NCBI RefSeq assembly: GCF_001481685.1
Contig: NZ_CP006867.1
Location: 360,001-392,000 of the forward strand
DNA from: Ignicoccus islandicus DSM 13165
GTDB taxonomy: Archaea; Thermoproteota; Thermoprotei_A; Sulfolobales; Ignicoccaceae
Direction: 5' to 3'
DNA: 32,000 bases
The notes below the pieces were generated by a model. The model did not search any database. It worked only from the letters and a program-made list of their open reading frames with translations, and was not told the origin of the DNA. Position numbers and translations under genes: made by a program. This document shows positions 3,890 through 31,359 of this stretch, in pieces; positions within the stretch are counted from its first letter, which is position 1; the number at the start of each line of letters is the position of its first letter.

Positions 3890-4514
3890 TCTCGTTCACC
3901 TCCCCAGCTTTTCTCTTACCATGGATATATCTCTTCATGGGATCTACTAGCTTCTTATTAGAACCTTCCCTATCGTTAACGGGATATTTAGTTAGCTTAG
4001 CTTCGCTCAGATCCCCTCCCCTGATTAATTCTTCCATTTTCAAGATAGACCGTATTAGAGCCTCGGGCCTGGGAGGACATCCGGCCAAGTTAACAACGTA
4101 CGTCTGTTTTCGAATCTCCTCCGGAAGGGACCTTATCAGCTCGTGAATTCCGTCTAGAACGTACTCGCTCTCCCACCAAGGCCCACCGTTTATAGCGCAC
4201 TCACCCATTACTATAACGTACCTAGGACCGGGCGTTTGCATGAATAACCTTCTCAGTCTCTCAGCTATTTTCCTATTGACGGGGCCATTGACCAATATTA
4301 CGTCTACTTGCCTAGGAGTGGCCCTCGCCAAAACGCCTATCCTCTCGAAATCGTGAAAAGCGAAACCTGCTTGCATCATTTCTATTGCGCAACACATTAT
4401 ACCTAAGTGGAGGAGCCACAGACTGTTCCTTCTGGCCCACTTAACGCCCCTTCCAATTGGTTGTATCTTCTTCAAATCCGGTCTCTTAACTAACTTAAAC
4501 GCCATGGAAATCAC
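3864..4514 (-). CDS. nuoB: NADH-quinone oxidoreductase subunit B (20 kDa, N2 Fe-S subunit)
   Basis: 216 aa. All four N2-cluster cysteine positions are present (GIMCCAIEMM, MGECAINGG, LAGCPPRPE). It has an ATGA start/stop overlap with nuoA and carries a roughly 45-aa C-terminal tail. Confidence 0.9.
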   Translation of the reverse strand: MISMAFKLVKRPDLKKIQPIGRGVKWARRNSLWLLHLGIMCCAIEMMQAGFAFHDFERIGVLARATPRQVDVILVNGPVNRKIAERLRRLFMQTPGPRYVIVMGECAINGGPWWESEYVLDGIHELIRSLPEEIRKQTYVVNLAGCPPRPEALIRSILKMEELIRGGDLSEAKLTKYPVNDREGSNKKLVDPMKRYIHGKRKAGEVNENEANVGGK

Positions 4515-4879
4515 CTCATCCAGACCATTATTCTAATCTTCCTCATCCACGCTATTCCGGCGAGTAGCGCAAAGAATAGCATACTTAATCCAATTAACGC
4601 ATTAATGGACGGATTGTTAGCTCCGACTAGCGCTAGGGCACCAGTAACTTCTGCAACGAAGAAGGCTATCAAGTAGGGGAAGAAGTTCACTGTATACCTA
4701 ACTTCCTTGGGATCACCTAAGGTAAGTTCACCGCACTCATAGGTCTCGTACTTATCGGGGTGTTCGGGGGTTGGGTCTTCAAGCAACTTGTTGATAACGA
4801 GGGAGCCGCCTTCCAAGACGGCTCCGACTGCCATTGCGGTCGCTACTGCTGTTATGGCTATAGCTCCAGGCTCGATCAT
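4511..4879 (-). CDS. nuoA: NADH-quinone oxidoreductase subunit A (ND3-like)
   Basis: 122 aa with three hydrophobic segments and a YECGE motif in the loop. It sits directly upstream of nuoB, with an ATGA overlap with the preceding gene. Confidence 0.75.
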   Translation of the reverse strand: MIEPGAIAITAVATAMAVGAVLEGGSLVINKLLEDPTPEHPDKYETYECGELTLGDPKEVRYTVNFFPYLIAFFVAEVTGALALVGANNPSINALIGLSMLFFALLAGIAWMRKIRIMVWMR

Positions 4880-9872: not shown

Positions 9873-10778
9873 TCACTTCGATTTCTGGTCTTGGTCAGCC
9901 CCTAACAGTTTCGCTAAGATATCCATTATAGTACCAGCGTCAATTTGATCGCGAGTATTACACTCACAGCAGAATAAGTAGGAATAGATTAGGGCCATTG
10001 CATCGCCTAGCCAGGGGCAATAGGGGAACTTGAAGTTATTGTTATCGCTTGATAACGCTGCCCTGACAACTTCATAGAACCATTCCGACCTATCTTTAAG
10101 TTTTCCAGTAGCTTTCAAGTAGGTTACGGCTGCTGCTAAAGAGAGGAATTTGCAAAATTGTGTGTTTAGCTTCCCTTTCACGTTGTTTAAAGCACTAGCG
10201 AAATTGGAGGCTTTATTATCACCGTAACATGTATCCAGCATATATATAAGGTCTTTGAGAGTATTCTTTATAGCTTTTACCAATTCGTTCTTCTTCTTAT
10301 CTTCATCAATATCTTTTCCTAGTATTCTCTTTAAGAGATCTTCTCCTTTCATCTCTGATATCTTCTCATGCATCTCTTTTAGTGAACTTAGCAGTCCTTG
10401 TACGGTTTTACAATCTCCGTTGCTTGTCCCATAGTTTTCTATAAGCCCGACTAGTTCATTCACACACCTATTTATTTCAAATGCCTTAGCAACATTTTGA
10501 TCGACGTCCCTTAGTTTATTTTTGATCTTTATACAAATAGCTTCGGTCACTTTTCTAATTAGTTCGCGGGCCTTCTCGTTACTTGAGAAGCTACATAAAT
10601 CTAATTCGTTATTATTCCCGCTCTTATTTTTACCAGTTTGGATCTTCTTGTATATGAGTTCATTCATGAGCTCATTGATTACATCTTTTACCTCTACCGA
10701 CTCTTTTGCGTCCTTTTTCAGTGTTATCTCGAGTAACTCGTTGAGCTTATATAAACCAGATTTGCTAGAGTTAGACAC
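9873..10778 (-). CDS. Hypothetical all-alpha, Cys-rich, Lys/Asn-rich protein (ORFan)
   Basis: 301-aa ORF in a markedly AT-rich stretch, with ATG start and TGA stop. No family was recognised. Many Cys residues are present, including PYCPW and FCCECN near the C-terminus. Confidence 0.55.
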   Translation of the reverse strand: MSNSSKSGLYKLNELLEITLKKDAKESVEVKDVINELMNELIYKKIQTGKNKSGNNNELDLCSFSSNEKARELIRKVTEAICIKIKNKLRDVDQNVAKAFEINRCVNELVGLIENYGTSNGDCKTVQGLLSSLKEMHEKISEMKGEDLLKRILGKDIDEDKKKNELVKAIKNTLKDLIYMLDTCYGDNKASNFASALNNVKGKLNTQFCKFLSLAAAVTYLKATGKLKDRSEWFYEVVRAALSSDNNNFKFPYCPWLGDAMALIYSYLFCCECNTRDQIDAGTIMDILAKLLGADQDQKSK

Positions 10779-10902
10779 TCCCTTTTCACCTATCGAGTTT
10801 CTCGCATGATGGATTCATATATCTAACTTCTTAGAATGTTCTACGCCAATTAGAGTGTAATTACATTACTGTATTAGTTGGTAAGGTTGATCGGGGATTG
10901 AA

Positions 10903-11319
10903 GTGTATATCAAATTTAAACAAGGATCTATAAAAGTAGAAGTGATAGGGAACGCATTATACGTAGGAGACGAAATAGTTCTGGATGCGAGAACAATAAC
11001 GTTTCCGAAAGGAAGCAAGGTTTACTACGCTGAACCTACTAAGAAGAAAATGGTTATAGTAATAGAACATCCTCCGATAAGGTTCGTTGAAGATCCACCT
11101 AGGGTAGACTTAGTCGCTAACGATAGGTTTTACTATATGGGGTTCGATGTCAGAGCAACAGACCTGGATTTCGAAAAGTACCTAACAGTAGTAGTACCAG
11201 GTTCGTTTTTATATGATTACGTTATAGTTACTTCAAACAAGAGCGAAGTCGCTATGAGCGCAAAGAGGAAAGCATATCTAGAGGAAACTGAAAAAAGTTC
11301 GATTATTTACTTATTGTAA
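10903..11319 (+). CDS. Hypothetical protein
   Basis: 138-aa ORF with GTG start, divergent from the 301-aa ORFan. Its end overlaps the convergent 693-aa gene by 13 nt. No recognisable motifs. Confidence 0.45.
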   Translation: MYIKFKQGSIKVEVIGNALYVGDEIVLDARTITFPKGSKVYYAEPTKKKMVIVIEHPPIRFVEDPPRVDLVANDRFYYMGFDVRATDLDFEKYLTVVVPGSFLYDYVIVTSNKSEVAMSAKRKAYLEETEKSSIIYLL

Positions 11320-13388
11320 GCCCTTCGCTTGAGTAACTTGCGAGAAGCTATGGAAGCCAACCCACCAATCAATGCAACAGACGGAATGCCCTTTTCGGCG
11401 CCACTAGAGCTACTGGTTATAATGAGTTCTGACTGCGATGCTGCTATCGGAGTTACTTTATATATTTTCGCATATCCAAATAGAGAAGCTACTACTATCT
11501 TGTCACCGCTCCATGCTACATGTCCAAAATCAACTGGATTCACTCTACCCAAAACTTCTCCATCCCTATTAACAACTAAAAGTTTTGAACTCGAAAGTAA
11601 AGCTAAGTAGTTGCAATCTTGTGAAAAGGCTTCCATATGAATCCATGGAGATTTATCTATATCTATTAGGTGTGAATTATCAATAACGGGAGTACTGAAA
11701 GTCTTTTCCCAGAGAACTTTAGCATGTGAAGGATCGCTTATATCTATCATAGATCTTGTTAGGTAGCTTCGCGTTAGTAAATAGCTTCCGCACGACTCAA
11801 TTCTTTTAATATGATGAGATTTAGGATTATTTTTAAATATTATTGTTTTGAACGTTATTTTTCCGTCTCTAGGGTTCACTGTGTATAAGTACAAGTAATA
11901 GTGTGCATTTCCACTATCGTCATCTTTACTAACTTCCAAGAATAAGTAGAATTGATCATTAGAATTAGACCTTGCAATGAATACTTCTGTAAGACTCCCA
12001 TCGACAGTGCTCACATTCAATTCAGTTTCCCACTTAAGAGTACCAGAGTAGTCGAGCTTAACGCACTTTACTAACTTTTGGGAAGAATTGAGATTACATA
12101 ATGCTATACCGTCTTCAATGATGAGTGGGTACTTGGCTGAGAGAATACCTTGAGTGTTTATTTCATTAATAAGGGTTCCGTTTTTGTTAACTAAATAGAC
12201 ACTGTTACCGGTACCTAAGGCGAAGAATCCATTGTAGTAATCTATACTATAAATATTTCCATCAGTATTGATGAGGTTAACTAGGTCTCCTTCTATTGTT
12301 TCTATTATGAAAATATTATGAAACGAGGCTCCTATATATCCATCTGGTGTGACTTCCAAGTTTCTTATGAGGAAAAATTCAAAATCGAGGGACGATATTG
12401 ATTCTTTTATTGAAAACTCTATTATTTTCTCTATTTTAACCTTAAGACCCATCAAGGAGGGGGTTGGCGGAGAGAGCGCGCTCTCATCGACAGTAAATGC
12501 ATAGATTTCTCCCGGAGTTACAGCGAATAAATTATTGTTCTGCCAGAACACAAAGAACGTGTTTGGGACTACTTTCGTGAATACGAGCTTTCCTGTAATA
12601 TCAAATACCTTCAATCGTCCAGTGTCAACGTCACCGACGGCTATATATCGGCAATCGGGCGAGAACGCTATTTTCTCAAAAGGTTCTCCTCCTGCTTCCG
12701 AGCTTTCCCAAACAACTGAGGGAACTACTTTCGATATATCCATCAAATAAAGATTAGTTAGAGTTAGCACAGCTAAATAATTTCCACAAGTGGTCATAGC
12801 TACAGCGGTGAAACGTCCCCCTAGGTTAAAGGAACTCTCTGCTACGTTCCTACCGTTCTCTAAATCAAGGACATAGATTTTACCAACTGGTAATAAGGAA
12901 TAGTAAAAGTATTTCCCACGAACCGCACCAGCTGTAGCTTCATGTGGATAACGTAATGTTATAGTCCATTTGGTACTTCCATTAAGGTCTACTAACTTAA
13001 TATCACTACCATAAAGTAGTATTCCGTAATCCGTTGTCTCGGCTCTATAGACACTAGCATCTTGGATAGTGAGCGTTTTCCATAAGCTCCCGTTCTCATA
13101 TATTAGCCAGAGTTTATCCCCCTCCGGTTCCATAACGATAAACAAGCCTTTGTTATAAACTATGTCTGAAATATCCCCATAAACATTAACTTTAGCAATG
13201 AAGTTCCCATATCTATCAAACAAGTAAACTAAGTCTCTATCCGTGAGGACAGCTAAGGTACCGCTATCGGAAACAGCGGCCGAAACTATAGTTCCATCAA
13301 CTTTTTGCATCCACTTTAAATCTAGGTTCAGAGAGAAGCCTATCGAGGCTATAATTAGTATTACTATTAAGCTATTCAGATTTTTCAT
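11307..13388 (-). CDS. Surface-anchored double beta-propeller repeat protein, paralogue 2
   Basis: 693 aa with an N-terminal signal (MKNLNSLIVILIIASIGFSLNL). Two repeat-rich halves are joined by a PPTPS linker. The N-terminal half aligns by eye with the 344-aa ORF (VSDSGTLAVLTDRDLVYLFDRYGNFIAK vs FSDNGHLGVASGDKCAYVFDANGSLLGK; IAFSPDCRYIAV vs FAISPDSSYAV). The C-terminus has a Ser-rich stalk, GIP, a TM helix and a basic tail. Confidence 0.7.
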   Translation of the reverse strand: MKNLNSLIVILIIASIGFSLNLDLKWMQKVDGTIVSAAVSDSGTLAVLTDRDLVYLFDRYGNFIAKVNVYGDISDIVYNKGLFIVMEPEGDKLWLIYENGSLWKTLTIQDASVYRAETTDYGILLYGSDIKLVDLNGSTKWTITLRYPHEATAGAVRGKYFYYSLLPVGKIYVLDLENGRNVAESSFNLGGRFTAVAMTTCGNYLAVLTLTNLYLMDISKVVPSVVWESSEAGGEPFEKIAFSPDCRYIAVGDVDTGRLKVFDITGKLVFTKVVPNTFFVFWQNNNLFAVTPGEIYAFTVDESALSPPTPSLMGLKVKIEKIIEFSIKESISSLDFEFFLIRNLEVTPDGYIGASFHNIFIIETIEGDLVNLINTDGNIYSIDYYNGFFALGTGNSVYLVNKNGTLINEINTQGILSAKYPLIIEDGIALCNLNSSQKLVKCVKLDYSGTLKWETELNVSTVDGSLTEVFIARSNSNDQFYLFLEVSKDDDSGNAHYYLYLYTVNPRDGKITFKTIIFKNNPKSHHIKRIESCGSYLLTRSYLTRSMIDISDPSHAKVLWEKTFSTPVIDNSHLIDIDKSPWIHMEAFSQDCNYLALLSSSKLLVVNRDGEVLGRVNPVDFGHVAWSGDKIVVASLFGYAKIYKVTPIAASQSELIITSSSSGAEKGIPSVALIGGLASIASRKLLKRRAYNK

Positions 13389-13826: not shown

Positions 13827-14861
13827 TTGAAACTAGTTACAGTAATTTTAGTCTCCATAGCATTGGTTGTCATTAACGCATACGATTTAGTTCTGGTATG
13901 GGAAACGCACGAACCTAAAGACGGAATACTCAAAATAACATTTTCAGATAATGGACACTTGGGAGTAGCCTCCGGGGATAAGTGCGCTTACGTATTCGAT
14001 GCGAACGGTTCGCTACTTGGTAAGAAGTGTGGAAGCAAAGGCATGAGAGATGTCGATTATTCCAATGGTACTTTTGCTTTCAGTAACTATGACGATTACG
14101 TGTATTTACTTTGGGAAAACGGAACTTATTGGAAAGAAATATACGTTGGCGATGAAAGGAACGTAGCAGTTGAGATGCTAGGAAACGGCTTTGTAGTTTG
14201 CGAATCTCATTGCACTCGTTACGATTTACAAGGAAACGTGATATGGGACCGGGTCGTTACTGATAGGTACGTTATAGATTTAGAAAGTAGTGGTAATTAC
14301 CTTTATTTAACTAATTTTAAAGGTACGCATAGTTACTTAGAAGTTAGAAACTTGAGCGACGGTAGCTTAGTAACGAACATAGATCATGAAAACAACGTCA
14401 TAAAGAACTTAGCCTTGAGGGGGAACTTCCTAATAGCTTCATCGTTCGGAGTTAGCTACGTTTACGATATCTCAGATCCTCAGAACGTAAGTATTCTCGG
14501 AGCTCTGGGTCCGGCCGAGGATTTCGCTATCTCGCCAGATAGTAGCTACGCAGTAATGGTCAACTCAAGTAAAGTAGTTATCTATAACACCCAAGGAGAA
14601 GCGATATACGAGGCTCCGATTTCTAATGCACTGAGAGTAGATTGGTGGAACAACTTAATTGCAATAGGTTTCGAAGACGGTACCGTAAAGGTCTATAAGT
14701 TCTTAATTGAAGATGAGGAACCTCAAGAGGAGGTCGCTACAACAGTACTTCATACAGAGACGAATACTCAGAGCACGGAATCACAAAGCGTTTCAGGAAT
14801 ACCTTTCATTAGTATAGCCGTAATTCCGCTAACAAGACTTAAGAGGAAGTTGAGAAAGTAG
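13827..14861 (+). CDS. Surface-anchored beta-propeller repeat protein, paralogue 3
   Basis: 344 aa with TTG start and an N-terminal signal/anchor. Repeat motifs include CAYVFDANGSLLG, TRYDLQGNVIWD, VVIYNTQGEAIYE and GTVKVYKF. The C-terminus has a Thr/Ser/Gln-rich stalk, then GIPFISIAVIPL and RLKRKLRK. Confidence 0.7.
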   Translation: MKLVTVILVSIALVVINAYDLVLVWETHEPKDGILKITFSDNGHLGVASGDKCAYVFDANGSLLGKKCGSKGMRDVDYSNGTFAFSNYDDYVYLLWENGTYWKEIYVGDERNVAVEMLGNGFVVCESHCTRYDLQGNVIWDRVVTDRYVIDLESSGNYLYLTNFKGTHSYLEVRNLSDGSLVTNIDHENNVIKNLALRGNFLIASSFGVSYVYDISDPQNVSILGALGPAEDFAISPDSSYAVMVNSSKVVIYNTQGEAIYEAPISNALRVDWWNNLIAIGFEDGTVKVYKFLIEDEEPQEEVATTVLHTETNTQSTESQSVSGIPFISIAVIPLTRLKRKLRK

Positions 14862-17311: not shown

Positions 17312-17339
17312 TCAAGTGTGATCTGATTCAAGGGTCAAG

Positions 17340-17356
17340 ATTTATATGTTTTATAG
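17340..17356 (-). promoter_or_regulatory. Putative TATA-box promoter of valS
   Basis: The minus strand reads CCTATAAAACATATAAATCTT. The ATATAAAT element ends about 28 nt upstream of the TTG at 17311, consistent with a near-leaderless archaeal transcript. Confidence 0.35.
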
Positions 17357-18016
17357 GTTTTCTTGAAGTCTTTCCCTGATACGTTCTTCTATTTGTTTTG
17401 TATTCGATTTCGATCCTAGTACTTCTCTGAAAGGAAGAAGCAAGTAAATCACTCCAGTACAGTGATTACATGAATACAATGGAAAGAATATGGCGGTGCT
17501 TCGCCTCCTTTTCTCTCCTTGTCGCCTTGGCCCTCCCAAATGGGGGACAAGGTTGTAGCCGTTCAAACTATGATAGAGGAGAAGATAAACGAATAGGTTC
17601 TAATAGGAATCGTATTTAGGTCTAATTACAGCCTTTCCTATCGAATCCATAAGCTCTTCTACCTTCTTTGTACTACTTGGGACAATCCCTACGTCAATAA
17701 CACTCAAGCTCGGCACGTTATCAATTAGGTTAAATGAGCTAGCTCATCCAGTTTTTCTGCTTTTAACATTGTGTATTCCGAACATAAACTTTAACAGAGC
17801 GAGTTTCAATGTACCTTCGGGTAAGCTAATACTTATAGGGAAACTTTCTTCTACTATTTTGTAATCAAGCTTATTTCTATTATTTATAAAGCTAGCTAAA
17901 GCAATCCTGCTGAGCCATCTCATTCTTCCAATTATCGAATAAGATCTAGGACCTCCTACGAAGAGTAACTCTCCGTTAATTAATTTAAAATTCTTACCTT
18001 GAGCGTCTTCGCCCAT
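17351..18016 (-). pseudogene. Decayed gene: one 222-codon reading frame interrupted by two in-frame stops
   Basis: The 90-aa ORF (18016..17744) ends at TGA 17746..17744. The same frame stays open for 47 codons to TAG 17602..17600. It then stays open again, still in frame, through the 71-aa ORF to TAA at 17351. No frameshift is needed. The product is unrecognised. A weak resemblance of GELLFVGGPRSYS to a degenerate RecA/KaiC-type P-loop is speculative. Confidence 0.5.
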
Positions 18017-18264
18017 ATAGGGCGTTCAATTCACGAATCTGAGTTTTACTCTTGGAAGATCCTTTAATATTCCCTTACTAAATTCGCTTAACTCATAAAG
18101 AAAAAGGATATATTTCTTTAGGTTATCACCGGATCGTAATCGTAACTGTAGATTGGACGACACAACTAGAGGATCTGATCATCGAAATCAAGCTTTTCAG
18201 ATCTTCGCCTCGCTCTCAACCTTTTTACCTTCCCCTCCCAATTAACTCCCTTCGGGAACATTGA

Positions 18265-18810
18265 TTGTCCCTCCCCGATCAACTGCTCGACCTAGCCTTC
18301 CAGTACGCTTCCCAGAAGTTCGCGGAAATACTCGATAAGCTCAGAGCTGGCAAGCCCATTACTGATTCCGAAGCGAACTTCATTTTGCTCTTCATGGTCC
18401 TTAATCAAACCAAAGTGAGTTACGATAGCTTGTACAAGCAAATGGAGCTCAACAGGATGGAATTGAGGGAAGTCGAGAAGAGGCTGGAGAAGAGGATTGA
18501 TGAGACTGATAAGAGGATAGAAGAAGTTGAAGCTAGGTTAAACAAGAGGATAGATGAGGTGAAGGAAGAGCTCAATAGGAGGATAGATGACGTTAGGAGC
18601 GAACTAAACGGTAGGATAGATGAGACCAATAGGAGGATCGATCAATTACGGGAAGAGATGAAGCTCATGGAAGAGAGGTTAAACAAGAGGATGGACGACA
18701 TAGAGCAATCGATCGACGAATTGAAGGCGGGAATGGCGGGATTGAACTCCCAGATGAAGTTGGTAACGGACATGCTGGGCAAAGTGGTGGAAGCGCTGGC
18801 TAAGAGATAG
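18265..18810 (+). CDS. Coiled-coil protein with 7/11-residue RID-type repeats
   Basis: 181 aa with TTG start immediately after an in-frame TGA. The central region is RIDETDK / RIEEVEARLNK / RIDEVKEELNR / RIDDVRSELNG / RIDETNR / RIDQLREEMKLMEERLNK / RMDDIEQ. Confidence 0.65.
   Translation: MSLPDQLLDLAFQYASQKFAEILDKLRAGKPITDSEANFILLFMVLNQTKVSYDSLYKQMELNRMELREVEKRLEKRIDETDKRIEEVEARLNKRIDEVKEELNRRIDDVRSELNGRIDETNRRIDQLREEMKLMEERLNKRMDDIEQSIDELKAGMAGLNSQMKLVTDMLGKVVEALAKR
18493..18700 (+). repeat. Intragenic tandem periodicity (33-nt and 21-nt units) encoding hendecad/heptad repeats
   Basis: The AGGAT(A/T/C) core recurs at 18493, 18514, 18547, 18580, 18613, 18634 and 18688. The spacings are 21, 33, 33, 33, 21 and 54 nt. 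Confidence 0.8.
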
Positions 18811-18943
18811 TGGAGAAGAATTGTAATCGCAAATCGTGGATCCAGTGATGAAATGGTGGCGTAGATATATACTGACGATAAACAGCTAGAAGAAAAATCG
18901 TATTATACAGAATTTCTAGTAATACGAGCTTAGGTAAAGGAAG

Positions 18944-21436
18944 ATGTCTAAGAGTTGCAGATCTAATGAGTCACTCCCAGAGACCGTTTTGAGAGTTATC
19001 AGAGGGAGGATAGGAAGGGACTTCGGCGTACCATTTATTATTGCCTCAATATATATGTTATTCTTCATAGAACTTTCGCGGGGGATAGACTATATTACCT
19101 CCATTCTTCTTCTGTCTTTCTACATACTAGCTACCGAAAAGGGGCTTCATCAAAGGTCATATAAACTCATTCGAAATTTAGTTTCGAGGTGGAAATTTCG
19201 TGGCAGATACTTGATGTCTTTCAGAAGATTGGGGGAAATGCTACGACCTTTTCAAGAGTTTATCATAGCATTTTTAGTAGCAGTTTTATCAGACGAAGCG
19301 TTGCGTGCTACAGCCAGCGTTATAGTAAACGCTACTGAAATATCGATTCGGCTCTTTACTGAGTTAATTGGAACATCGTTCGTTCAAGGTATATTGTACA
19401 TAACGCAGCACTTCATATTGGGCATAATAAATATATTTTCACCAGTAAGTCCTGCGTTAGTAACGACGTTGGTAGTTCTATTATATAGCTTTGTATTAGT
19501 AAAGGGGATACTCAGAGTTTCGTCGCCGGATCCAAATGATCCTACGAAGAGTCTCTTATACAGGGAAGTAATACGTGATACTATAGATGACTTTGATAAG
19601 GCTTTGGGTAACTTAAAGAGAGAAGAGCGTTTAGCGATAAGAGGTATTGCAATTGCTCTAGGTTTAGTTACGGGTCTCGTACTCATCTTAGGATCTAGAG
19701 ATACTAGGCTATCCCACATCTCGCTACTTCTATCTCTAGCTGCAGGGTACGTTTTCTATAAGCATATAGAGCCTCGTTACGTAGCGATGAAGTCGCGAGA
19801 GAGGATAGAGAGCGGTAATAATCTCCTCGAAAACGTTTACCTCAAGCGATTGCAACGCTTTGGGAGCCTTTCACCGGAATTCAAGAGCACTGCGACTTTC
19901 ATATTTTCATCTCTAATCATATACGTATTTCAGTTAGAGTCGAGAAACCGTAAATTCGAGCGGATATACGTACCGAAAGAGGTGAGATGGGAAGGGGGCA
20001 AGTTAAAGGCCGAATACGTGCGAGTCTATCCACCGAATGAGATCGGAATTATAGAAGTAGAGGCTACACCTACTCCCAAGATCCGAACTGGGACTACTAA
20101 TAGAAACGCTGTACTGGAAGTACGCACTACTATTAATGACGACATTGACAGTGAATGGAACAACGTGAAGTTTGAACTGAGCCTCGAAGACGTACATGGA
20201 AACATATGGAGGGCGTTTCTTATTAATGAAAGCGACTTCAGCTTCGGTATTGTCGCGTTCTTCGCGCCCGGTGCTACAGAGATTCTCTGTAAACCTGGTC
20301 TAAAAGTTAGACCTTACTTAGAGCCGAAGTTCGACTCGGATGTCCATGGCTTAATTGAGAGGTTCCTCCCATCGTACGTAGTGAAGGATCTTGATAAACA
20401 CTTAAAGGGTACTGGCTTCAGTAATCTCAAGCCAAGACTCGTAGACCTCAGCAAGGACGTAAGCAATGATTTCATTAGCATTAGCTTTGCAGTAACTACT
20501 GCTAGAGACGAGTTCTTGATCCACAAGTCGCCCGATTACGTATTTGGGCCGAGCTATGAGAGAAGTATAAGGGACGTCATAGAGCCTCATTTATTTAAAC
20601 TGAGTTTCCACTTCACTTGTAATAGCGTAACGCCCGAAGGCCCCCTACAAGAAATCCGGAAAGGAGGCGTCATAAATTTACTACCCTTACCAAATCCCGT
20701 AGGAACCGACTTAATAGTAGTTACTAAAGATGGATACATATTGTTCCAATATAGAAGCGGTGGTGCAACCCTAGCTGCTGAAAGAGGAAACTTTGCCCAT
20801 GCCATCTCCGGAGGTCTAGATTTCTCTACAGTGAAAAATGTCATCAGTAAATACGAGGGTAGAGCTCAATACGAAAATTGTAACGATTTTCTTGAAGAGT
20901 TATCAAGGCAAGAGGAAGGCGAGGAAGAGGAAGTTAGCATATCTGATGAAGAAATAGGTAGAGCAACCCTCGCGATATCAATTACCAGAAACGCTTTGTA
21001 TCTGGGCCTCCCTGGGTTCTTCGGTTTCAAGAGGTACGACGAAGACTGGAATAACGTTAAGGAAAGACGTGATGCACTGATACAACTAGGTCTAGAGAGT
21101 AGAAACGTCTTGGCAGTTAAGTTACCGGAAACTATCGCTCCCAGTAAGGTAACGAACGAGTTCCTAGAATCACTAATAAAGAACTGGATCCTTTACGTAT
21201 TCAGGTACAGCGCAACCAAGGACGAAGCGATAGTAAACGATTTCGAGGAAAGGATAGACGTTATTGAGAGGGGTGGAAAGGAAGTCTCCGCGGACGCACG
21301 GAAGTCCGTAACCAAGAGCTTCTTGAATTACAATAACTACAGTGCGATCTTGGCCGTATCTATACTCTCCCTTCTCCAGTATTACTACTGCAATAAAATG
21401 GGGTGGAAAGAAATTAGCGAGGTGGGAGCGAAGTGA
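18944..21436 (+). CDS. Large polytopic membrane protein with about 500-aa soluble region (possible degenerate Nudix-like fold); function unknown
   Basis: 830 aa with ATG start. About 7-8 hydrophobic helices lie in residues 1-330. A beta-rich segment follows. Next comes GTDLIVVTKDGYILFQYRSGGATLAAERGNFAHAISGGLD ... FLEELSRQEEGEE, which resembles the first strands of a Nudix fold plus a degenerate, insertion-containing Nudix box. No kinase, P-loop or other catalytic signature was recognised. Confidence 0.7.
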   Translation: MSKSCRSNESLPETVLRVIRGRIGRDFGVPFIIASIYMLFFIELSRGIDYITSILLLSFYILATEKGLHQRSYKLIRNLVSRWKFRGRYLMSFRRLGEMLRPFQEFIIAFLVAVLSDEALRATASVIVNATEISIRLFTELIGTSFVQGILYITQHFILGIINIFSPVSPALVTTLVVLLYSFVLVKGILRVSSPDPNDPTKSLLYREVIRDTIDDFDKALGNLKREERLAIRGIAIALGLVTGLVLILGSRDTRLSHISLLLSLAAGYVFYKHIEPRYVAMKSRERIESGNNLLENVYLKRLQRFGSLSPEFKSTATFIFSSLIIYVFQLESRNRKFERIYVPKEVRWEGGKLKAEYVRVYPPNEIGIIEVEATPTPKIRTGTTNRNAVLEVRTTINDDIDSEWNNVKFELSLEDVHGNIWRAFLINESDFSFGIVAFFAPGATEILCKPGLKVRPYLEPKFDSDVHGLIERFLPSYVVKDLDKHLKGTGFSNLKPRLVDLSKDVSNDFISISFAVTTARDEFLIHKSPDYVFGPSYERSIRDVIEPHLFKLSFHFTCNSVTPEGPLQEIRKGGVINLLPLPNPVGTDLIVVTKDGYILFQYRSGGATLAAERGNFAHAISGGLDFSTVKNVISKYEGRAQYENCNDFLEELSRQEEGEEEEVSISDEEIGRATLAISITRNALYLGLPGFFGFKRYDEDWNNVKERRDALIQLGLESRNVLAVKLPETIAPSKVTNEFLESLIKNWILYVFRYSATKDEAIVNDFEERIDVIERGGKEVSADARKSVTKSFLNYNNYSAILAVSILSLLQYYYCNKMGWKEISEVGAK

Positions 21437-22269
21437 AGTTCGAATGTATAGCAGCTTTTACCTCAAAGAGTCCATCGAAAACCTATAACGAGGACCAAGC
21501 GATCTGCACCGACTACTTGGCAGCGGTAATTGACGGAGCCTCGCCGTTAGTAAATGACCTTCAAGCGAAGCTTCGGACGAGGTGGCTAGTGGACGAAATA
21601 GTTTCGGAACTAATCTCGCTTAAGGGCGATTTAAGGAGCGGCTTGAACGATTTAATAGATTCCCTTAGGTCGAAGTACGAGTTAAAGTTCGGTTTTCCAA
21701 GCAATGTCGGGAAATACGAACTACCGTCCGCTGCTGCTTCAATAACCAAACTCAATGCTGAGGGATTAGAGTACGCTGTGTTCGCGGACTCCCCGCTAGT
21801 AATCACCTTCAAGGGAGGTGGGGAGAAGGTAATTACCGATGACTCTATTAAGGAGCTCGACCAAGTAGTAGTGAATAGAATAGAGGAGTTAATGGCTGAA
21901 GGCTTAAGCTTCAACGAAGCCCTCAAGGAAGTACGACCGATATTAAGGAAGAATAGGGAGATGATGTGCATAGGCTATAGCGTGATAGCGCCTCTGGGTG
22001 AATGCAAGCGCAACTTTATATACGGAAAAATGAACCTCGAAAGCGTAGAATACTTGGCGTTAATGAGCGATGGAATGGCTAGGTTAGTCGATACGTACGG
22101 GTTCTTCCGGAGCTATAGGGAAATGATGTTATATGGAATTGAAAATGGATTCGGTGATTTGCTTAGAATTCTGCGGGAAATAGAAAGGGAAGATGAAGGC
22201 GTGAAAGTGTTCAAAAGAGTTAGCGTCTACGACGACGCCTCCTTAGTGGTCTTGCGCCCGTCTCCGTAA
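21433..22269 (+). CDS. PP2C-like (PP2C_2-type) putative protein phosphatase
   Basis: 278 aa. The GTG start overlaps the stop of the 830-aa gene (GTGA). Motif order fits PP2C-like proteins: KTYNEDQA, AAVIDGASP, LALMSDGMARL and C-terminal VYDDASLVVL. The assignment rests on motifs only. Confidence 0.55.
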   Translation: MKFECIAAFTSKSPSKTYNEDQAICTDYLAAVIDGASPLVNDLQAKLRTRWLVDEIVSELISLKGDLRSGLNDLIDSLRSKYELKFGFPSNVGKYELPSAAASITKLNAEGLEYAVFADSPLVITFKGGGEKVITDDSIKELDQVVVNRIEELMAEGLSFNEALKEVRPILRKNREMMCIGYSVIAPLGECKRNFIYGKMNLESVEYLALMSDGMARLVDTYGFFRSYREMMLYGIENGFGDLLRILREIEREDEGVKVFKRVSVYDDASLVVLRPSP

Positions 22270-22380
22270 ACTTTGATATCGAATGAGTACTCGTGGACCT
22301 AACTGTTTCGCTCGAAACGGATAAGGTTTACGGAAAACCGTTAAATCGCTTAACCTACATACGTAAATAGAGGTGGAGAT

Positions 22381-23256
22381 TTGAACCTAGAGGACCTCCC
22401 AACTGACTCACTGAGCGAATTCCTGGCAGCAACGGAAACTTTAAGCTGTTCTGATCTGGGCGAGCTCCTAGAACAAGGGATATCACTGCTGGATCCCAAG
22501 CCCCAAGAGCTGGACCCATCGAAGCCCGCGCTCTTTCACGGAGATCTACATGGCGATATAGAAACTCCTTTTGAGGTATGGAGGAAAGTTGGCGATATCA
22601 AAGGCTTTAACTTGATATTCCTTGGAGATTACGTCGATAGGGGTCCCAATCAAATAGAGACCCTCCTATTGGTTCTATCTCTAAAGGCAAAGAGGCCGGA
22701 AGAGGTCGCCGTATTAAGGGGTAATCACGAGCCTCCGAGGAACCTCATACCTTCCCCTCACGATTACCCAATAGAGCTAAGGGAGAGGTGTGGGGACGAA
22801 ATGGAACTATACGAACTTTCCCTGAAGCTCTTCGATAGGATGCCGTTGTTCGCTATTTACGGACGATATCTAGGCGTACACGGAGGCCCTCCCTTTAGGA
22901 AGGGTTGCAAGGGTATTTCGTGTTTAGATCAGCCCGACCTAGAAGCTGTGCTTTGGAGCGATCCGGACGAGCTCTTAGGAGAGGAGATATGCGCCTACGA
23001 GGATCCCTTGGAGAAATGTATTGAAAGGAATTACTATAGAGGCGCCGGTTACATATGGGGCGCTGGGGCAACGAGGGAGTTCCTAGAGGCGACCGGCTTT
23101 GAGAAAATAGTAAGGGGTCACACTGCGGTCAATGGAATAGCGTTCACCCATAGGAATAGGGTGATAACGCTATTCACTAGGAGAGGTCCTCCGTACTACA
23201 ACGAGAGGGCGGCGGCACTGCTCGTTAAAGGCGAAGAGAAGGCAGTGTTGGTTTGA
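22381..23256 (+). CDS. PPP-family Ser/Thr protein phosphatase (PP1-arch type metallophosphoesterase)
   Basis: 291 aa with TTG start. It carries the canonical PPP motifs GDLHGD, GDYVDRG, RGNHE and later GVHGG and RGH. Confidence 0.88.
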   Translation: MNLEDLPTDSLSEFLAATETLSCSDLGELLEQGISLLDPKPQELDPSKPALFHGDLHGDIETPFEVWRKVGDIKGFNLIFLGDYVDRGPNQIETLLLVLSLKAKRPEEVAVLRGNHEPPRNLIPSPHDYPIELRERCGDEMELYELSLKLFDRMPLFAIYGRYLGVHGGPPFRKGCKGISCLDQPDLEAVLWSDPDELLGEEICAYEDPLEKCIERNYYRGAGYIWGAGATREFLEATGFEKIVRGHTAVNGIAFTHRNRVITLFTRRGPPYYNERAAALLVKGEEKAVLV

Positions 23257-24871: not shown

Positions 24872-25714
24872 ATGAAAGTAGCTCTGGCCTTCGATCACCC
24901 CAGATGGGAAGAGAAACACATACTTGAAGTAATAACTAGTATGGGCTACAAGGCCGTCCCAATCCCACTGAGATCTACCTCCCTAGACCTATCTAAGCCG
25001 AAGCTCGATGCGAACGTAGTAATTCAAAGGGCGATCAGCAGCGTTAGAGCTATTACTTCAACTTCTTACTTTGCAGCCGCAGGAGTTCCAGTGGTTAATT
25101 CTCTGTTTACCCAATTAATTTGCGATAACAAGGTACTAACTGATATGGCCTTGTCCAGGGCCGGCGTTCCGAGACCGAGGACTATAGTGGCTTACAGCGA
25201 AGAGGAGGCCATGAAGGCCGCGGAGGAACTGGGTTATCCGGTAGTGGTAAAGCCTATACAAGGGAGCTGGGGGAGGCTTCAAGCGTTAGCCAAGGACCCC
25301 GATACCCTCTTGACGGTGCTCGAGTTCAGGGAAGCCATGCCTAGTCCGCAATTCAAGGTTCATTACATACAAGAATTCGTCAAGAAACCAAATAGGGACA
25401 TAAGGGCCTTCGTAGTAGGAGGCTCAGTTAGGACAGCAATATATAGGATCTCCTCCAATTGGAGGACTAACACAGCGCTGGGAGGTAAGGCCGAGCCGGC
25501 GAAAATAGATAGCGAATTGGAAGAGATAGTATTGAGGGCAGCTGGAGCGGTTGGAGGAGGAGTTCTCGGGGTGGACGTGGTTGAGGATCCCGAAAGAGGC
25601 TACCTAGTGCTCGAGGTTAATTCTAACGTAGATTTCAAGAACACGTATAGGGTAACTGGTCACGATTTGGCGAAAGACATAGTTGAATATGCAGTTAACT
25701 TAGCTAAGATGTGA
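24872..25714 (+). CDS. ATP-grasp ligase of the RimK/LysX/ArgX family
   Basis: 280 aa. The full-length pattern is typical of LysX/RimK: FDHPRWEEK, VPVVNS, CDNKVLT, GYPVVVKPIQGSWGR, YIQEFVKKPNRDIRAFVVG, WRTNTALGGKAEP, GGGVLGVDVVED, LEVN. No LysW-like zinc-ribbon carrier and no other lys/arg genes are nearby. Confidence 0.85.
   Translation: MKVALAFDHPRWEEKHILEVITSMGYKAVPIPLRSTSLDLSKPKLDANVVIQRAISSVRAITSTSYFAAAGVPVVNSLFTQLICDNKVLTDMALSRAGVPRPRTIVAYSEEEAMKAAEELGYPVVVKPIQGSWGRLQALAKDPDTLLTVLEFREAMPSPQFKVHYIQEFVKKPNRDIRAFVVGGSVRTAIYRISSNWRTNTALGGKAEPAKIDSELEEIVLRAAGAVGGGVLGVDVVEDPERGYLVLEVNSNVDFKNTYRVTGHDLAKDIVEYAVNLAKM

Positions 25715-28242: not shown

Positions 28243-31359
<3,117 letters not shown>

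Follow-up and report, generated by a model that had tools for sequence, protein, structure and literature searches.

A predicted PP2C-fold phosphatase gene that overlaps the gene for a polytopic membrane protein of no known family in Ignicoccus islandicus: a possible lineage-specific accessory cassette

What is a gene with the marks of a bacterial-type protein phosphatase doing in the chromosome of a hyperthermophilic crenarchaeon, with its start codon overlapping the stop codon of a gene for a membrane protein? PPM/PP2C phosphatases are common in Bacteria, and a 2016 review records a single characterised archaeal PPM, from a euryarchaeon (PMC5007285). The question is raised by EYM_02225 and EYM_02230, two adjacent genes in a 32,000-nucleotide stretch of the Ignicoccus islandicus DSM 13165 chromosome (contig NZ_CP006867.1, positions 360,001 to 392,000; hereafter, the window). 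An initial annotation of this DNA had proposed a candidate membrane signalling or conflict module, in which a polytopic, Nudix-like protein is coupled to a PP2C-like protein next to a phosphatase of the PPP family. We arrive, at a rough probability of 0.45, at a lineage-specific two-gene accessory cassette in which the PP2C protein would act at the membrane with EYM_02225. The three open reading frames (ORFs) of the initial annotation (18944-21436, 830 amino acids (aa); 21433-22269, 278 aa; 22381-23256, 291 aa) are all present on the plus strand, and the first two make up the proposed cassette, with the following features:

18944..21436, plus strand: EYM_02225 (GenBank ALU12303.1), an 830-aa polytopic membrane protein, by ORF and UniRef identity.
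18944..19885, plus strand: residues 1-314 of EYM_02225, a species-specific N-terminal extension without homologue, with ~7 hydrophobic helices by hydropathy.
19886..21436, plus strand: residues 315-830 of EYM_02225, the last transmembrane helix and a soluble domain common to a small family, by family alignment.
20708..21127, plus strand: residues 589-728 of EYM_02225, the stretch read as 'Nudix-like', LIVVTKDGYILFQYRS ... ISGGLD ... QEEGEEEEVS ... ITRNALYLG.
21419..21424, plus strand: GAGGTG, a Shine-Dalgarno-like site inside the 3' end of EYM_02225, read in the sequence and of presumed function.
21433..22269, plus strand: EYM_02230, a predicted 278-aa PPM/PP2C-fold metal-dependent phosphatase of a PP2C_2-like clade, with a GTG start.

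The two genes meet in the tetranucleotide GTGA (21433-21436), as the initial annotation had it, so that the stop codon of EYM_02225 is shared with the start of EYM_02230: the upstream frame terminates in GAG GTG GGA GCG AAG TGA, and the downstream one starts at the GTG in aaGTGAag (21433). The Shine-Dalgarno-like GAGGTG lies 8 nt 5' of that GTG, and overlap and site together are what is usually seen where genes are co-translated. Homology speaks for the GTG start, since bacterial relatives start at the aligned position (for example P0023, MKFECL). Sources differ on the start of EYM_02225, which is placed at 18944 in GenBank (830 aa), at 19214 by Prodigal/Logan (740 aa) and at ~19238 in RefSeq (732 aa). 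The long form seems preferable, because the frame opens at 18938, making the ATG at 18944 the first possible start, and because the additional 90 codons 5' of M91, which would be free of stops by chance with a probability of ~0.003, encode two hydrophobic helices.

The identity of the downstream product could be established with some precision. The 278-aa ORF is EYM_02230 of I. islandicus DSM 13165 at 100% identity, and searched alone against PF13672 (PP2C_2) it scored 13.7 bits (E 0.045) against a cut-off of 24 bits. When EYM_02230 and its single close homologue were combined in a profile, the search returned 52 proteins, 250-300 aa long, of which 17 carry PF13672. An AlphaFold2 model made from a 34-sequence alignment had a predicted local distance difference test (pLDDT) score of 94.9 and a predicted TM-score (pTM) of 0.92; compared by Foldseek with the PDB, it gave 129 matches at E<=0.001, and all 50 of the 50 matches listed have the PPM fold, with PstP, Stp1, PPM1K and tPphA in the lead (E 6e-10, probability 1.0). 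Ten columns of the 34-sequence alignment are invariant (D21, I33-D34-G35, D119, D213-G214, R262 and D267-D268). They follow the motif order NED / IDGA[ST] / GD / SDG / DDA[ST], in which every metal-binding Asp is invariant, and both the PP2C fold and the order of motifs that the initial annotation had read from this protein (NED, IDGAS, SDG, DDAS) are borne out. The family profile also matches tPphA by sequence at 3e-10: D21, D34-G35, D119 and D213-G214 align to the tPphA motifs NQDA, DGMGG, GDS and SDG, and the alignment stops before the C-terminal DDAS. These aligned motifs of tPphA and PstP we take to be the metal-binding ones. Judged by model and alignment, EYM_02230 is predicted to be a genuine PPM/PP2C-fold enzyme with its metal ligands intact; by those ligands it would be catalytically competent, and phosphatase activity is predicted for it.

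The clade has a helical insert of its own at residues ~138-175, with a near-invariant R-x3-N (LRKNRxxMN in close relatives). Residues 141-176 of EYM_02230 (21853-21960), within this region, match UPF0181/YoaH (Pfam 3.6e-4, NCBIfam 1e-4) and phrog_29644 (1.2e-4), which reads as a short shared helical motif.

The named relatives of EYM_02230 are all bacterial, from Virgibacillus, Bacillus, Pontibacillus, Microvirga and Sphingomonas, with plasmid-borne copies in Streptomyces, Sphingopyxis, Verrucosispora and Amycolatopsis. IMG/VR contigs account for two relatives, and the closest of all, with 33% identity, adjoins genes for a type IV secretion system (T4SS) pilin, PrgI and a TraC-like protein. 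No protein from Ignicoccus hospitalis or any other archaeon is named among the matches. As its relatives are found in bacteria, on plasmids and on phage-like contigs, EYM_02230 was probably acquired horizontally from bacteria.

A link between this clade and membranes is suggested by the genes that precede its members. In five of the eight closest PP2C relatives, the PP2C gene is directly preceded, on the same strand, by a gene for a membrane-associated protein, and the stop codon of that gene overlaps the PP2C start in three of those five (transmembrane helices and membrane association, here and below, were called from hydropathy alone). Three of these upstream partners are homologous to one another, combining a TPR-like helical domain with three C-terminal transmembrane helices (BLASTP between members 5e-23 and 1.5e-11):

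L004, 4553-6004: TPR-like partner gene with three transmembrane helices.
L006, 4406-5401: TPR-like partner gene with three transmembrane helices.
L027, 4845-6029: TPR-like partner gene with three transmembrane helices.

In two of the three, the stop codon of the partner gene overlaps the start of the PP2C gene, and in L006 the two genes are 4 nt apart. Searches with these proteins returned only weak Pfam TPR matches, and neither PADLOC nor PHROG had a family for them; between their second and third transmembrane helices they carry a KKF[KN]K-type motif. The fourth partner is an 8xMP 'octameric membrane protein' (PF24838, 9.7e-14), on which a literature search found nothing relevant, and the fifth is lipoprotein-like, with a stop that overlaps the PP2C start. 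The remaining three upstream genes encode a CHAT protease, a helix-turn-helix (HTH)-like protein and a 164-aa unknown protein, while more distant actinobacterial plasmid copies of the PP2C gene adjoin GntR regulators. The CHAT gene (L032 342-2693) encodes a 783-aa CHAT-domain protease matching PADLOC SAVED_CHAT at 1.6e-8, directly upstream of the PP2C relative P0004. Additional phosphatases occur near PP2C relatives twice, an anecdotal observation (LMW-PTP and PAP2 in L004, Metallophos in L003).

The upstream product, EYM_02225, is the more enigmatic of the two. It has ~8 hydrophobic helices between residues 28 and 333 and a conserved amphipathic C-terminal helix, in keeping with the polytopic membrane protein first described over about the first 330 residues, and it matches no family in Pfam, NCBIfam, PADLOC or PHROG; the picture of a 278-aa PP2C coupled through GTGA to a polytopic membrane protein of no known family therefore stands. 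A word-index homology search returned only EYM_02225 itself. When 1.84 billion cluster representatives were searched exhaustively with phmmer, four distant proteins of 448-529 aa emerged (E 1.5e-10 to 2.6e-4), matching residues 487-736 only, and a metagenome scan added four loci, so that with cluster members ~10 family sequences are known. The named members come solely from metagenome-assembled genomes (MAGs) labelled 'Desulfurococcales archaeon', all cluster members of one representative. A scan of viral contigs for the family found nothing, and sequence and profile searches of the PDB yielded only a chance-level segment of PEP-carboxylase.

Members of the family share a basic N-terminus, two transmembrane helices separated by a loop of 3-19 residues, a basic stretch and a soluble domain of ~380-450 aa, followed by the conserved amphipathic C-terminal helix, which ends in Cys. 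Most members have no K/R in the loop between the helices, and from this positive-inside pattern the soluble domain would be cytoplasmic. Forty positions are invariant across the family, the EYM_02225 copy included; in its numbering they comprise D596, G597, R604, S605, E613, G623, D626, E657, E660, E663, S665, R682, N683 and E718. They thus include an acidic set (E613, D626, E657, E660, E663 and E718) as well as DG, RS and RN motifs, and given this acidic cluster the cytoplasmic domain may be a metal-dependent enzyme. EYM_02225 itself is the most diverged member, with its 314-residue N-terminal extension of ~7 extra transmembrane helices, for which no homologue was found, and with an insertion of ~65 residues at about residues 375-440. 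A full-length AlphaFold2 model from a five-sequence alignment had a mean pLDDT of 37.4, and Foldseek on that model returned nothing at E<3.

Could the soluble domain be a Nudix fold, as the initial annotation suspected? The motif string behind that reading is present and conserved across the family, in the form GIxIIIITKDGYILL-x2-RS-x2-VAVE ... G[GS]LDWKTL ... QEIxExEE[LIV]S ... RNLRxLGKP. Its motif order loosely resembles that of Nudix hydrolases such as MutT, NudF and RppH, with a hydrophobic strand, DG-x-hLL, RS and GG-LD followed by an acidic helix with three invariant Glu; it differs in having ~12 extra residues between the G and the acidic helix and a Glu spacing of i, i+3, i+6. The Nudix box itself (GX5EX7REUXEEXGU, as strict and loose regular expressions) occurs in none of the ten family sequences, whereas among nine Nudix genes of E. 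coli K-12 (NC_000913.3), which served as the reference, it was found in seven by the strict form and in eight by the loose one. Even with the threshold at E<=10, Pfam had no match for the region, and the PDB sequence and profile searches found no Nudix protein. With hhalign, the family profile matched the nine-sequence Nudix profile at 1-2% probability (score 18.5-21.3), against scores of 17.2-18.0 for the reversed Nudix profile and 19.1-19.8 for an unrelated PP2C profile, while the two halves of the Nudix set recognised each other at 99.5% (E 9e-23). By these sequence tests, a Nudix assignment for EYM_02225 is not supported: there is no box and no Pfam or PDB signal, and the hhalign result equals that of the reversed control. 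The best, non-significant hhalign alignment sets the acidic helix of the family on the helix of the Nudix box, a placement that is a lead and not evidence.

Nor is the pairing of the two genes conserved. No PP2C gene occurs at the eight loci where the 830-aa protein has relatives (L008, L009-L011, L012, L013, L023, L024/L025 and L026), and no relative of the 830-aa protein is encoded at the 13 loci of the PP2C relatives, so the conservation in related genomes on which the initial annotation had staked its proposal is missing from both sides. The relatives of EYM_02225 have other company: a Vut_1 transporter, a conserved 187-aa ORF, housekeeping genes and, in four of seven distinct neighbourhoods, toxin-antitoxin genes at a distance of ~0.1-0.5 kb:

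L012, 2121-2680: PIN and AF2212-like genes.
L013, 2699-3299: DUF433 and DUF5615 genes.
L024, 2109-2546: PIN gene.
L026, 2484-3243: HEPN and nucleotidyltransferase genes.

The 187-aa ORF, which has no Pfam family, lies 40 nt 3' of P0055 (L009 6536-7099, L010 1915-2478, L011 1882-2445). These three contigs are independent, and no such ORF was seen in the other family contigs examined; its product may be a real partner of the family with the two-transmembrane-helix domain.

In base composition the two genes of the cassette also part company. EYM_02225 has a GC content of 0.43 and a GC content at third codon positions (GC3) of 0.45, against 0.47-0.51 and 0.51-0.62 for housekeeping neighbours, and its N-terminal part is the most AT-rich of the gene (GC3 0.38-0.43, with 0.38 for residues 91-314). 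EYM_02230 is not AT-rich (GC 0.46, GC3 0.55). The view that the region is AT-rich relative to housekeeping genes hence holds for EYM_02225 and not for EYM_02230.

How, then, might the pair work? EYM_02225 would be the most diverged and N-terminally expanded member of a tiny membrane-anchored family whose named members come from Desulfurococcales MAGs, and EYM_02230 would have been acquired horizontally from a clade otherwise found in bacteria, on plasmids and on phage-like contigs. Translated by coupling to EYM_02225, the soluble phosphatase would act at the membrane together with the EYM_02225 product, either dephosphorylating its cytoplasmic domain or being recruited and controlled by that domain. 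That EYM_02230 probably acts at the membrane is argued by analogy from its bacterial relatives, which have membrane-associated proteins encoded upstream and appear to act likewise, with their own, unrelated partners. Something of the membrane effector or sensor with a phosphatase, as first imagined, is retained here: the general idea gains from the five of eight closest PP2C relatives with a membrane-associated partner, and the specific pair and the Nudix component fall away.

Several observations weigh against this proposal. The pairing of EYM_02225 with EYM_02230 is seen solely in I. islandicus, no kinase lies near the cassette, and the sample of neighbourhoods behind the analogy is small (eight close contexts), with membrane association called there by hydropathy only. 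The stop/start overlap is by itself weak evidence of a functional link, because such overlaps are common in this compact genome. Strict family motifs have, moreover, degenerated in EYM_02225 (EPTTYYYSF to AVTTARDEF, GWNEFK to GFSNLK, VAVEQ to LAAER), and this degeneration, with its AT-richness, may point to fast evolution of the gene or to loss of its ancestral function.

The main rival, which we hold to be rather unlikely, takes the arrangement for a chance juxtaposition: within a patch that is variable and AT-rich, a horizontally acquired PP2C gene would have come to lie behind an unrelated orphan gene, genome compaction would account for the 4-nt overlap, and the two products would be unconnected. 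It is favoured by the failure of the pair to recur in any of ~21 related loci, by the differing composition of the genes (GC3 0.45 for EYM_02225 and 0.55 for EYM_02230), by the quite different partners of distant PP2C relatives (GntR, CHAT) and by the overlapping junctions elsewhere in the window (4511-4514, 4876-4879 and 25711-25714). These other overlaps, however, are inside functional operons; against chance there are also the correct placement of the Shine-Dalgarno-like site inside EYM_02225 and the recurrence, among the closest PP2C relatives, of upstream partners that are membrane-associated. Decay offers another way of dismissing the pair, by supposing that EYM_02225, as an orphan in decay or in very fast evolution, no longer performs its ancestral function, leaving the PP2C gene alone functional. 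The degeneration of family motifs in the I. islandicus copy alone, the AT-richness of the gene, the disagreement of annotation pipelines over its start codon and a gap just upstream that holds only short, frame-shifted ORFs all point that way, but an open frame of 830 codons would, at 43% GC, hardly be expected in the absence of selection (p 0.003 for the first 90 codons), forty family positions are still invariant, the acidic cluster among them, and EYM_02230 depends on the 3' end of EYM_02225 for its Shine-Dalgarno-like site. We regard such decay as very unlikely.

A conflict or defence module, in which dephosphorylation by the PP2C would switch an effector or sensor that is tethered to the membrane, Nudix-like and nucleotide-processing, strikes us as improbable. 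The toxin-antitoxin genes beside relatives of the 830-aa protein in four of seven neighbourhoods lend it some colour, as do the PP2C relatives that lie on plasmids and IMG/VR contigs, beside a T4SS or, once, behind a CHAT protease (SAVED_CHAT). In the family itself, the beta-beta-helix order of motifs recalls Nudix, E657, E660 and E663 are invariant, and there is the non-significant hhalign overlay of the helices. Hyperthermophilic archaea, however, abound in toxin-antitoxin pairs, which makes adjacency to such pairs weak evidence. Neither protein, nor any of their relatives tested, matched a PADLOC or PHROG family, and with PADLOC-DB 2.0 the cassette region gave only generic coiled-coil matches, for the upstream neighbour EYM_02220; the suggestion of a conflict module found no backing there. 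The Nudix box is missing from ten of ten family sequences, Pfam is blank at E<=10, and hhalign gives the 1% of the reversed control against 99.5% for the positive control. The pairing, besides, is not conserved, and no relative of the 830-aa protein occurs in the viral contigs scanned.

Among known systems, the bacterial PPM/PP2C phosphatases (PstP, Stp1, tPphA; PF13672) are closest to EYM_02230, which resembles them in fold (Foldseek E 6e-10, target-normalised TM-score 0.6-0.7), in its metal-ligand motifs (NED, IDGA[ST], GD, SDG, DDA[ST]) and in its single-domain PPM size. It differs in falling below the PF13672 threshold (13.7 against 24 bits), in having DGAS instead of DGMGG, in its long helical insert (~138-175) with R-x3-N, and in belonging to a hyperthermophilic crenarchaeon, PPMs being mainly bacterial (PMC5007285).

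Combinations of a PPM catalytic unit with a polytopic or anchored membrane part have precedents in SpoIIE of B. subtilis (~827 aa, with 10 transmembrane helices, a regulatory domain and a PP2C domain) and in PstP of M. tuberculosis, which has a C-terminal transmembrane helix. The layout of EYM_02225, with a transmembrane block in its first ~330 aa and a cytoplasmic part of ~500 aa, resembles that of SpoIIE, but the I. islandicus phosphatase is a separate polypeptide, and EYM_02225 has no PP2C similarity and no SpoIIE Pfam match. The possibility that its soluble part is a degenerate, SpoIIE-like PP2C was rejected at an hhalign probability of 0.5%. The pairs of L004, L006 and L027 share with I. 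islandicus the PP2C clade and a membrane-anchored gene immediately upstream; they differ in that their TPR-like partners are not homologous to EYM_02225. A relationship between its transmembrane block and these partners was likewise rejected, the best BLASTP match (E 0.046) falling within a transmembrane helix.

Two genes flank the cassette on the same strand:

18265..18810, plus strand: EYM_02220, a 181-aa hendecad coiled-coil protein, PaREP15-like, the upstream neighbour of the cassette.
22381..23256, plus strand: a canonical Ser/Thr phosphatase of the PPP family, 291 aa (ALU11536.1), by Pfam, PDB and motifs.

The hendecad coiled coil that had been described upstream is evident in EYM_02220 as an 11-residue repeat, with an identity autocorrelation of 0.26 at lag 11 against a background of ~0.07, and the UniRef name is 'PaREP15, coiled-coil protein'. 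Its periodicity is mixed, of 11 and 7 residues, with identity peaks at lags 11, 18 and 22, and its GC3 of 0.65 is unusually high against the AT-rich surroundings. The decayed gene that had been placed before it, at 17312-18264, could not be substantiated: this is a 953-bp gap without a long ORF, in which short minus-strand ORFs (71, 38, 90, 45 and 38 aa) shift in frame and have no Pfam match, although such a chain would be compatible with a decayed gene.

Downstream, the canonical PPP phosphatase is as the initial annotation described it, with the motifs GDLHG, GDYVDRG and RGNHE, a Pfam Metallophos match at 5.7e-21 and PDB matches to PP2B, PP2A and PP1 from 4e-26 to 1e-17. Because it is a canonical PPP with its own Shine-Dalgarno-like site (GGTGGAG, 3 nt before a TTG start), and because the spacer to EYM_02230 measures 111 nt, it is probably an independent neighbour outside the cassette, a status that had been entertained for it from the outset.

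The setting is chromosomal: elsewhere the window contains an SPFH gene, a Nuo/Mrp-like cluster, TldD/PmbA, an aminoacyl-tRNA synthetase (read as ValRS from its motifs), a radical-SAM/SPASM gene, a LysX-like gene and, at 28299-31352, 23S rRNA. Two scans of genome contigs for synteny in other Ignicoccus, one with the PPP protein and one with the alignment of the 830-aa family, returned no matches. A scan for promoters and terminators found no enrichment; its models are bacterial and not applicable to archaea. A second, still more AT-rich patch (9873-13388, and 13827-14861; GC 0.37-0.38, GC3 0.35-0.42) lies between TldD/PmbA and the synthetase gene, with three ORFs of 301, 138 and 693 aa without Pfam match, then a weak WD40-like ORF. 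This patch may be another orphan or insertion island.

What the locus means can be stated at several levels. The findings are not yet a new system, because the pair is confined to one species. At its most far-reaching, and as a long shot, the family with the two-transmembrane-helix domain, whose metagenomic members come from hot-spring-type metagenomes, would be a new, extremely diverged Nudix-like or other metal-dependent nucleotide-processing membrane enzyme of toxin-antitoxin-rich regions, placed in I. islandicus under a horizontally acquired bacterial PP2C; if true, this would be an undescribed archaeal membrane signalling or conflict module, with EYM_02225 elaborated by seven extra transmembrane helices. 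Short of that, the analysis defines a very small membrane-tethered family, to date known only from Desulfurococcales MAGs and a few metagenomes, in which the acidic cluster is invariant and for which Pfam and the PDB have no relative. It also places a structurally confident, predicted PPM/PP2C protein, apparently of bacterial or mobile-element origin, in a hyperthermophilic crenarchaeon, where the review cited above knew one characterised archaeal PPM, from a euryarchaeon (PMC5007285). The pair of TPR-like membrane protein and PP2C in bacterial relatives is itself undescribed, and the broader, likewise undescribed habit of this PP2C clade, of standing directly behind the gene for a membrane-associated protein, is a lead for membrane-associated phosphatase signalling.

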